A stretch of 64,000 bases of DNA. Source: Elusimicrobiota bacterium. Lineage in GTDB: Bacteria; Elusimicrobiota; Elusimicrobia; FEN-1173. A program made the translations under genes and the position numbers. Below, piece by piece: positions 14,983 through 17,068 of this stretch (its first letter is position 1; every line of letters begins with the position of its first letter). The notes under the pieces were generated by a model, which ran no database searches, was not told the origin of the DNA, and was given only the letters and a program-made list of their open reading frames with translations. Location of the stretch: positions 1,967,225 through 2,031,224 of the forward strand of contig JADKHR010000001.1 of assembly GCA_016721625.1 (NCBI GenBank). Reading direction: 5' to 3'.

Positions 14983-17068
14983 ATGAAGACAAGCGTGACC
15001 ACCGAACGGTCGGATGACCTCACGGCCAAGAACAACAATAACCACCTTCCAGAACAACCGAAAACAATTGTGTTCGTCGAGACGCTTGATTTGAGGACGT
15101 TGTTTTATCTCATTCTTCATAAGGATCAAATTGAAAGGGTTTATGTGTTTAGGGCATCTCGTTGGAAAGGTTTGAATAATTTTCTTCATTTTATTCGTCT
15201 GTTGAAGACGGTGCCTGTCCCAATCCGAATATATTTGGCCGATGTTAGGGATGCGGAGGGTCGATGCATTTATCCAAGTGTTTTTAGCGACGCGAGCGGG
15301 CTCTCGGAAGTGGTTCGCCAAACAGAATTCGATAAAAATGAAATGGTGGAAAGAGCCTGCCTATTGATGGGGAATCGTCAAGCCGTAATGCTTTTTTTAG
15401 AAAAATTAATTTATCAGGACATTTTTGAAGTCCTTTCAAAGGCGCACATGGCCAAATGGTATTTCACAAACGTCCTTCAATTTCCGCGGGCCCGATGCGT
15501 TTTGTTGGTGCCAAACCGGTTGTGGTGGAGCCATGTCTCCGGTTATACAACGTCGGTGGGTGTCCATTTAATTAGGGTCGGTAGCGCCGATCATCGGTCG
15601 ATATGGCCCTTCATTTCCCTAAGGTTGGTGCGGGGGCTTGCTCATGGAATGCGGGAAGGCCTTCGAGCGGTTTTCAAGGCTTCGGGCCGCCCGGGTTCCT
15701 CACCAAAAATTATTGAATCACCCACCCAACAAACCAAGATAGCAACCGATTATCTTGGGACGCCGGTATCTTTTGATGAGAAAAAAAGATCCACGTTTCT
15801 TTGGATGATCAACTCAGGACTTCAAGAGGAGCGGGTCTCTCTGTTTCGGTCTGATCAAACCTTTTCAATGAGTGACGAAGAACTGATGTTGCTTAAAAAT
15901 AAGAGAATTCAGCTAATAAACTTGTCCAAAGAAGCCAACGTAAAAAGCGCTATTCGCGTTTTATTGGACCGTGGGGTATGGGTGCTGTTGATGGAATTGA
16001 TTCGGGGTGTTTTCACGGGGGGGTATAAAAAGTTTCGGACCAATGTATTCTGCTTTGAAATGTTGTTACGCTATTCGATTTATTTCACTTTTTGGCGCAA
16101 TCTTTTTCAACGCTACGGGATAAGAATGCTCATGACCTCCTCTTATTTCGACCCCTTCCATATTCCTAAACATTGCGCCGTCAAATCGAACAAAGGAATT
16201 AGCCTGTCGTACCAATGGTCAAATCTTGAAATTAATGTAAAAACGATCAGTATTTGTTGCGATATGTATTTTGGGTTTTCTGAAATGTATAAAAGAACTT
16301 TATATGAAAATGGTTCCCTCATGGGTGCTTTCCTTCCAACAGGGTATATTACCGACTACGGCATTAAAAGCGTTAAAGAGAATGCCGCAAAATTGAGAAG
16401 CACTCTAACCAAAAACGGAGCCAATTTCATTCTTTGTTTTTGATGAAAATTCTTCGGATGCTTTGTACAGTATTATCCCTCATCAACAAACTGTTTCTGT
16501 GTACAGGGGCTTTCTTGAGAGATTGATGAAGGATCCTACGCTTGGGATTATTTTCAAACCCAGTTACCCCCATACGATTTACCAGCGCTTGTCGCCGATT
16601 TCCGGTTTGCTGGAAGCGGCTAAAAAGACCGGGAGGTGCGCTTTCATCGATGAGGGAAAGTTTAAAAGCGATAAACTTCCTACGGAAATTGCCCAAGCTT
16701 CGGATGTCGCCGTCGGTCTTCTCCTCAGCGGTACGGCGGCGCTTGAGTCCTCGTTGTCGGGGGCCAAGACCGTGTTTCTGAACCTCGAAAAAGTTTCTTC
16801 CATTGGACTCGGTCCAGCGGACATTGGGAATGTCGTTTTTAATAGTTTAGAGGAATTGTTTTTGGCGACGGACCTTTATCGAAATGGGGGAACCGACCGG
16901 GAGAAATTCGGAAACCTCTCCCATTGGGTCGGGATGAGGGATACCCATCGGGACGGTCGGGCGACCTTTAGAATGGGGCGATTCATCAACGCGCTGTTGA
17001 TGGGATTGGACCGCGGGGAAGATCCAGACACCGTCCTCGAACGGTTAAAACAAGAGGTCGCATGTTGA
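14983..17068 (+). CDS. large hypothetical protein (~690 aa with one frame change near 16440), possible capsule/nonulosonate glycosyltransferase
   Basis: ORFs 14983-16443 and 16463-17068 join if one base is restored in the T-run at ~16435-16445 (...KNGANFILCF / FVFDENSSDALYSIIPHQ...); low-GC; C-terminal part has a Rossmann-like GT-B flavour (...DVAVGLLLSGTAALESSLSGAKTVFLN...); function not established. Confidence 0.45.

Follow-up and report, generated by a model that had tools for sequence, protein, structure and literature searches.

The window analysed here, a stretch of 64,000 nucleotides from an Elusimicrobiota bacterium (assembly GCA_016721625.1, contig JADKHR010000001.1, positions 1,967,225 to 2,031,224 of the forward strand), carries at 14983-17068 two successive open reading frames (ORFs) at the head of a glycan gene island, and the locus raises the question of whether these are one gene or two and what the encoded protein does. 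The initial annotation had taken them for one low-GC gene whose reading frame is interrupted at a T-run, and had proposed the product as a candidate for the transferase that places a nonulosonate on its acceptor. Comparison of the sequences with homologs points to a single gene with a product of ~694 residues. We lean towards the view that this protein is a cytoplasmic GT-B transferase using an ulosonic acid activated by cytidine monophosphate (CMP), that is, a nonulosonate of the pseudaminic or legionaminic acid (Pse/Leg) type or sometimes a Kdo-like one; the assignments of donor, acceptor and residue roles discussed below are our proposals. The low GC content was confirmed (45.4% for the gene vs 61.8% for positions 10000-14900), and the fall sets in where the gene starts; the gene opens a low-GC block of ~15-28 kb followed by ~54% GC up to ~50 kb. 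The description of the gene as the largest of the island holds within this block but not for the whole glycan region, because a B12-radical-SAM ORF at 36800-39013 (737 aa) exceeds it.

In the ORF listing, the upstream ORF (14983-16443, forward strand, 486 aa) starts with ATG and ends with a TGA stop codon at 16441-16443, and the downstream ORF (16463-17068, forward strand, 201 aa) starts with TTG and is displaced by +1 relative to the first. On the AlphaFold2 model, the upstream ORF corresponds to residues 1-486: a non-conserved N-terminal tail, an N-terminal Rossmann-like domain, a linker, the N-lobe of the GT-B fold and the first beta-strand of the C-lobe (FILCF). The downstream frame is open from ~16401, with no ATG, GTG or TTG until 16463; in the homolog alignment its part from 16442 to 17068 (forward strand) supplies residues 487-694 and the stop codon (DENSS... 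to ...EVAC*). The junction reads ...AAT TTC ATT CTT TGT TTT TGA TGA AAA TTC..., and the sequence and its comparison with homologs place the frame break in the run of five T residues (T5) at 16436-16440 on the forward strand. Deletion of one T or insertion of two fuses the frames into a 694-aa product, which in the one-T deletion form reads ...NGANFILCF-DENSSDALYSIIP... In the word-indexed protein search, the upstream ORF proved to be NCBI protein IPP35_08650 itself, annotated as 'hypothetical protein' (482 aa) in the metagenome-assembled genome (MAG) of an Elusimicrobia bacterium, which consists of a single contig of 2.76 Mb.

The homologs read unbroken through the junction, and we therefore treat the halves as one gene, as initially annotated. 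The relatives P0002 (677 aa, 47% identity, 95% coverage) and P0003 (699 aa, 31% identity) are of full length; their alignments start at about residue 27 and reach the C-terminus, and each continues over the junction as FV(I/T)(C/T)FFDENS. On the DNA level, the homolog in locus L002 has TGT TTT TTC GAT (C-F-F-D) where the window has TGT TTT T-- GAT, meaning that the window is 2 nt short of the L002 state or 1 nt long in comparison to a version with one Phe. The ortholog in locus L001, the closest relative and syntenic with the window, gave tblastn matches to frame 1 at 15061-16434 and to frame 2 at 16439-17074, which together make up one gene. In the alignment of 103 family sequences, from which all conservation counts given here were taken, D487 is present in 102 and E488 in 98 members; these residues fall in neither ORF as written, and no start codon or Shine-Dalgarno element was found ahead of the TTG at 16463 that would enable a C-terminal half containing them. 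The halves are thus not independent genes, and a functional split GT-B enzyme of the Alg13/Alg14 type was rejected on the same grounds. In the AlphaFold2 model, the break lies precisely where the first C-lobe beta-strand (residues 482-486) ends.

The T5 frame break is most likely an indel error of the long-read assembly and not biology. Comparison with L001 orthologs and Pfam profiles revealed no fewer than 10 additional frame breaks or spurious stops in the ~19 kb between 12 and 31 kb, inside as well as outside the island and mostly at short homopolymers, with positions at ~12077, 12150, 12912, 13145, 18825-18860, 20715-20717, 28475 and 30100-30150. In the high-GC flank, a helix-turn-helix regulator gene (12019-12254) is scattered over three frames, and the gene of an M4 thermolysin-like peptidase lies in three ORFs (Peptidase_M4 82-140, Peptidase_M4_C 1-65 and 70-164), one of its breaks being a C3-to-C2 change within HELTH(G). 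Inside the island, two shifts in the GT4 gene at ~18825-18860 compensate each other, a TAA arises within T5A4 in the MBOAT gene, and the two NeuB paralogs are broken at a G5 run (~28475) and at ~30100-30150, respectively. Since so many breaks at short homopolymers lie nearby, even in a housekeeping-type peptidase gene, and since the homologs are unbroken, the break in our gene is probably of the same origin. The metagenome contig collection contained no second copy of the junction for a cross-check of the T-run length, with any 3-9 nt allowed in place of the T-run. We considered it quite improbable that the break is real. In that case the gene would be a pseudogene or a phase-variable (slipped-strand) gene for a surface glycan that happened to be OFF, or it would be decoded by +1 ribosomal frameshifting of the prfB type at UUU UGA. 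A homopolymer break within a surface-glycan gene is the classical setting of phase variation, and on C UUU UGA the P-site tRNA-Phe could re-pair in +1 beside the stop codon, giving ...CF-DENS... However, the tract is merely 5 T long, no Shine-Dalgarno-like stimulator lies immediately upstream of UUU UGA, the shift is not kept in the two homologs, which encode FFDENS, and the compensating double shifts in GT4 and the broken peptidase gene outside the island form the signature of long-read indels. Locus tags of the IPP type may belong to a set of MAGs assembled from nanopore reads of activated sludge. The sequence C UUU UGA U at 16433-16443, although formally like a prfB +1 frameshift site, is probably coincidental, and the frameshift at T5 should not be taken as biology. 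Gene calls in 12019-31000 are unreliable, and because the surrounding assembly is full of indels, annotation pipelines split this gene and several others.

The repaired 694-aa protein had no sequence match in Pfam, NCBIfam or the PDB (phmmer) at E<=10, in agreement with the initial statement that its function was unknown and that no motif could be assigned with confidence; no known family can be assigned from the sequence. The word-indexed protein search returned 3 proteins only, both with the single sequence and with the 103-sequence alignment, which wrongly suggested a near-orphan. In contrast, an exhaustive profile search over 1.84 billion representatives gave 1752 matches at E<=1e-3 and 820 at E<=1e-30, counted as representatives of clusters at 50% identity; among the matches listed, nearly all were 660-720 aa long and spanned profile positions ~10-691. 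Members are known from Elusimicrobia, Brocadia, Clostridia, Flavobacteria and Gammaproteobacteria, in glycan loci. The profile of 103 members matched PDB sequences at chance level only (iota toxin 0.07, LpxB 2.3), and when 61 members were scanned against Pfam, LpxB and DUF6716 were the only matches, each in 2/61 at E ~0.02. A tblastn search of plasmids with a homolog gave no match. By its sequence relationships, the protein belongs to a large multi-phylum family that has no curated domain model.

To describe the fold, we used an AlphaFold2 model built on the 103-sequence alignment, with a predicted local distance difference test (pLDDT) value of 91.5 and a predicted template modelling (pTM) score of 0.90. 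In this model the protein begins with an N-terminal alpha/beta domain (residues 28-200; 15064-15582, forward strand) of Rossmann-like, HUP-class topology with a three-helix insertion; only G93 and K141 in it are conserved at >=90%, and no conserved nucleotide-binding motif was found in this domain. A basic linker of low confidence follows (residues 200-250). Residues ~250-694 are predicted to form a complete GT-B fold, with two Rossmann-like lobes facing a cleft and C-terminal helices crossing back to the N-lobe. The N-lobe (residues ~250-478; 15730-16416, forward strand) has seven strands and, in the alignment, the motifs G405-V-S-x-S-Y-Q411-x-S, G454-Y-x-x-D458 and R472. The nucleotide-binding C-lobe (residues ~480-640; 16420-16903, forward strand) spans the frame break, and the C-terminal helices (residues 646-693; 16919-17062, forward strand), which pack back across the lobes, carry D653-P-F-R-D657-G658 and the invariant R663. 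The initial annotation had noticed a GT-B-like region at the C-terminus; in the predicted structure this region is the nucleotide-binding lobe of the larger fold. No structural homology to a non-glycan enzyme was found, and the top structural matches were biased towards enzymes using CMP or cytidine diphosphate (CDP). The protein has no transmembrane-like segment and is net basic (90 K+R vs 70 D+E), and so it would fit a peripheral cytoplasmic enzyme.

The C-lobe carries most of the conserved motifs: F-I-x-C-F-(F)-D487-E488-N-S, G521-L-I-x-K525-P526-K, R535 and T549-G-R551-C in its first part, and P566-x-E-A-A-x-A-x-D574 followed by G-G-T584-A-A-L-E588-x-x-L-x-G593-x-P-T-x-x-L-D600 in its second. 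G454, R551 and R663 are invariant in 103/103 sequences; Q411, D458, R472, D487, E488, Y507, P526, R535, T549, P566, D574, T584, E588, L591, G593, D600, D653, D657 and G658 are conserved at >=90%, and histidine is absent from the invariant and >=90% columns alike. A G-G/S-T/S-x-x-x-E sequence followed by G-x-P is the nucleotide-binding helix motif in the C-lobe of MurG, LpxB, PseG and epimerases. In our family the corresponding helix has T584 in 95, E588 in 102, L591 in 102, G593 in 100 and P595 in 58 members, and the weak LpxB profile match mentioned above falls exactly at G-G-T584...E588.

The gene neighbourhoods of the window and of 14 other loci were then compared; a locus search with a 3-sequence alignment had given 5 genome loci. 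PF02348 (CTP_transf_3) cytidylyltransferases activate Kdo and the neuraminic (Neu), Pse and Leg acids as CMP-sugars, and a gene of this family was present within 10 kb of the family member in the window and in 11/14 other loci, a linkage that appears far beyond chance for a gene at 1-3 copies per genome. NeuB was present in the window, L001, L003-L006, L008 and L014. A Wzx-type gene directly adjoins the family member in L003-L008 (L003 and L006 from Ca. Brocadia, L004 from a Clostridia MAG, L005 from a Flavobacteria MAG, L007 from a Gammaproteobacteria MAG and L008 from a metagenome contig), where NeuB, GNAT and AsnB-like genes usually precede it, with PseF/PseG-type genes upstream and a second CTP_transf_3 gene downstream. 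An ABC exporter adjoins it in L010, in the order Epimerase_2, further genes, CTP_transf_3, methyltransferase, ABC exporter, family member. L014 has CTP_transf_3, a KdsA-like DAHP_synth_1 gene, HAD and a beta-lactamase-fold gene ahead of the family member and AKR (aldo-keto reductase), CTP_transf_3, PseB, PseC and NeuB behind it, and in the locus of P0040, CBS-NTP-transferase, GFO_IDH, CTP_transf_3 and methyltransferase genes all precede it.

In the mechanism that we propose, the neighbouring NeuB-type synthase and cytidylyltransferase would make the CMP-ulosonate donor. The C-lobe would bind the cytidine nucleotide via GGT584-AALE588, with E588 contacting the ribose, K525, R535, R551 and R663 would be candidate contacts of the phosphate and carboxylate, and D458 or D487/E488 at the inter-lobe cleft could be the base activating the acceptor hydroxyl. 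The acceptor would probably be a lipid-linked oligosaccharide at the inner membrane face, and the neighbouring Wzx-type flippase (the ABC exporter in one locus) may then export the glycan. The GT-B fold, the CMP/CDP bias of the structural matches and a linkage, strongly conserved between phyla, with genes for CTP_transf_3, NeuB and Wzx are consistent with this role.

Several findings weigh against a nonulosonate transferase. An HP motif and a D/E-D/E-G motif have been described for sialyl- and nonulosonate transferases (Freiberger 2007, as cited in PMC5420450). In our family the place of HP is taken by K525-P526-K527 (86, 99 and 85 of 103), an equivalence placed by topology (after the second C-lobe strand); the family lacks a conserved His, unlike the HP-motif enzymes; and the only acidic pair, D487-E488, precedes N and not G. 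In L013 there is no NeuB or cytidylyltransferase gene within 10 kb, and SIS, transaldolase and HpcH/HpaI aldolase genes are present; the short or partial loci L009, L011 and L012 show neither NeuB nor CTP_transf_3 in the available sequence. Other candidate nonulosonate transferases also co-occur, namely a second GT-B-like protein of ~640 aa beside the second CTP_transf_3 gene and, in L003, an MptE-like (Maf-type) fusion. The initial proposal is plausible and better grounded now, being consistent with fold, CMP/CDP bias and gene linkage; because the known motifs are absent, some loci lack NeuB and other candidates are present, the role itself stays inferred.

The ~640-aa proteins, without a significant Pfam match, are encoded at L002:4070-5998, L003:14445-16358, L005:13377-15290, L006:14452-16452 and L008:15105-17027, 2-3 genes downstream of the family member and always followed by a ~220-aa CTP_transf_3; the window has no homolog. 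This family is a further uncharacterised candidate transferase; that it is a paralog of our protein was rejected, since hhalign gave a probability of 4.6% and aligned nothing beyond the generic nucleotide motif of GT-B proteins. The other candidate, of 578 aa, has an unusual architecture in which an HMGL-like aldolase/lyase domain is joined to an MptE-like (DUF115, Maf-type) one; it is encoded at L003:17057-18793, where the gene matches PF01973, and also at L005:16151-17887, and a PfkB kinase follows.

The initial annotation had also suggested a comparison with Maf and KpsC-like proteins, and this comparison was negative at the level of sequence profiles. The window protein and the 61 members had no match to Maf/MptE-like proteins (DUF115, PF01973) and none in Pfam to KpsC/KpsS (Capsule_synth, GT107), which were also absent among the structure matches listed; Glyco_transf_52 likewise had no profile match in them. 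The Maf and KpsC/KpsS proteins, as well as the sialyl- and polysialyltransferases of GT38, GT52 and GT80, all transfer CMP-activated ulosonic acids, as proposed for our protein; GT38, GT52 and GT80 have the GT-B fold, and KpsC, with ~675 aa, is of similar length. WaaA (KdtA, GT30), the CMP-Kdo:lipid A Kdo transferase, showed no sequence-profile relationship for the window protein, the 61 members or in the PDB profile search; our protein is ~300 residues longer and has an extra N-terminal domain and a different motif set. In Tannerella forsythia, Tanf_01245 and TFUB4_00887 are GT-B/TagB-like transferases of Pse/Leg derivatives (442-445 aa) that carry the D/E-D/E-G and HP motifs; by genetic evidence, they are needed for placing the terminal nonulosonate on a glycan, which is flipped later (PMC5420450). 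The genomic logic is shared, since their genes lie beside CMP-Pse/CMP-Leg biosynthesis genes and a methyltransferase gene (PMC5420450); by the published description, our family differs in its length of ~690 aa, in K-P-K where HP is expected and in D-E-N opening the C-lobe. By analogy, our protein most probably works like WaaA or the T. forsythia transferases, apparently without belonging to their families, and it is best described as a member of a GT-B family that lacks a curated model and has an additional domain at the N-terminus.

Other functions have to be weighed against a CMP-ulosonate transferase. The protein could be an ordinary glycosyltransferase of the same pathway with a UDP-, GDP- or dTDP-sugar donor, in which case the linkage to ulosonate genes would mean only that both build one glycan; we regard this as rather unlikely. 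A phosphotransferase or polymerase like TagF/TarL, which would use a CDP-activated alditol- or sugar-phosphate donor to make a teichoic-acid-like or phosphodiester-linked glycan, seems improbable. Structural alignments to the TagF/TarL polymerases and to TagF-like capsule polymerases (Bcs3, Cps3D) give only ~7-9% identity, Glyphos_transf had no match to the window protein (E<=10) or the 61 members (E<=0.1), and the PDB profile search returned no TagF/TarL at E<=10. Catalysis by TagF/TarL depends on an active-site His, and the TarL and TagF structure entries are the H300N and H548A mutants, whereas our family has no conserved His. In addition, the linked cytidylyltransferases are of the PF02348 type (KdsB/NeuA/PseF, CMP-ulosonate) and not of the TagD/IspD type (CDP-alditol). 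A GT-B enzyme processing nucleotide sugars in ulosonic acid biosynthesis (a hydrolysing 2-epimerase or nucleotidase like NeuC, LegG or PseG) is very improbable, because this step is already covered by PseG-type/Epimerase_2 genes present alongside the family member in L003, L005, L010 and the window (42648-44321), Epimerase_2 (PF02350) and Glyco_tran_28_C had no profile match in the window protein or the 61 members, the protein is twice the size of such enzymes, and its gene adjoins flippase or exporter genes and not dehydratase and aminotransferase genes.

In the window, the gene is followed by two methyltransferases, GT4, MBOAT with a single-transmembrane partner, radical SAM/SPASM, GNAT, AsnB-like and Wzx genes; then come NeuB, CTP_transf_3, NeuB/SAF, PseB, PseC, AKR and CTP_transf_3, and finally a class-III aminotransferase, B12-radical SAM, two GT2, a PseG-GNAT fusion, PseI, dehydratase and NTP-transferase. 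The GNAT (23973-24572), the AsnB-like amidotransferase (24577-26502, 641 aa) and the Wzx-type flippase (26551-28053), all on the forward strand, are the three genes that in other phyla directly flank the family member. The region 28098-30881 (forward strand), with NeuB paralog 1, CTP_transf_3 (29074-29811) and the NeuB/SAF paralog 2, is a module for nonulosonic acid synthesis and CMP-activation. PseB (TIGR03589, 485 bits) and PseC (TIGR03588, 460 bits) at 30965-33133 exceed the NCBIfam equivalog cut-offs, and by this measure the pseudaminic acid pathway is truly encoded in the window.

Some further features of these loci were noticed. Two divergent NeuB-family synthases flank CTP_transf_3 in the window (28098-30881) and in L001 (19302-22034); the intact L001 orthologs score 120-321 bits, under the cut-offs of NeuB (399.65) and PseI (340.25), and to judge from the sequences the product of the pair may be a nonulosonate different from Neu5Ac and Pse. 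One ORF at 42648-44321 combines a PseG domain with a GNAT (PseH-like) domain and is followed by PseI at 44432-45346; the fusion could be an artefact because of the local indel rate. At 20118-22712, the MBOAT gene (split by its spurious TAA) is followed by a gene for a 376-aa protein with a single N-terminal transmembrane segment and no Pfam match, an arrangement resembling the MBOAT-plus-partner modules for O-acylation of extracytoplasmic glycans. Radical SAM proteins (SPASM-type, B12-binding) recur in nonulosonate loci across phyla (window 22875-23903 and 36800-39013; L001:13893-15266; L002:2519-4012; L003:19888-21603; L008:1-509, 13631-15082 and 19634-22053), which suggests that the sugar or its N-acyl groups undergo radical chemistry such as C-methylation. 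A GNAT and an AsnB-like amidotransferase of ~630-650 aa lie as a pair immediately upstream of the family member in several phyla (L003:7392-9861; L006:7516-9967; L008:7512-9985), the window pair being at 23973-26502; this pair possibly gives the nonulosonate a decoration of an amidated or acetamidino type.

As a tentative generalization, the family could represent a new glycosyltransferase family, the general CMP-nonulosonate (Pse/Leg-type, sometimes Kdo-type) transferase of many phyla, with Elusimicrobia, anammox Planctomycetota, Clostridia and Bacteroidota among the carriers. It would act on lipid-linked glycans ahead of their export by Wzx, with a His-free active site (Lys/Arg and Asp/Glu) that differs from that of the HP-motif sialyltransferases, and its N-terminal HUP-like domain would read the acceptor or the N-acyl decoration on the sugar. 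In many bacteria, nonulosonate sugars influence the cell surface, the evasion of immunity and the interplay with phages, and few enzymes of the transfer step are known. The family described here, consistently beside CMP-activation genes, widespread yet unstudied, provides a concrete candidate for this step, with its limits, fold and invariant residues defined, and it would justify a new Pfam/CAZy family. To a glycobiologist a nonulosonate transferase in such loci would be unsurprising; the value of the finding lies in a well-defined and widespread candidate.

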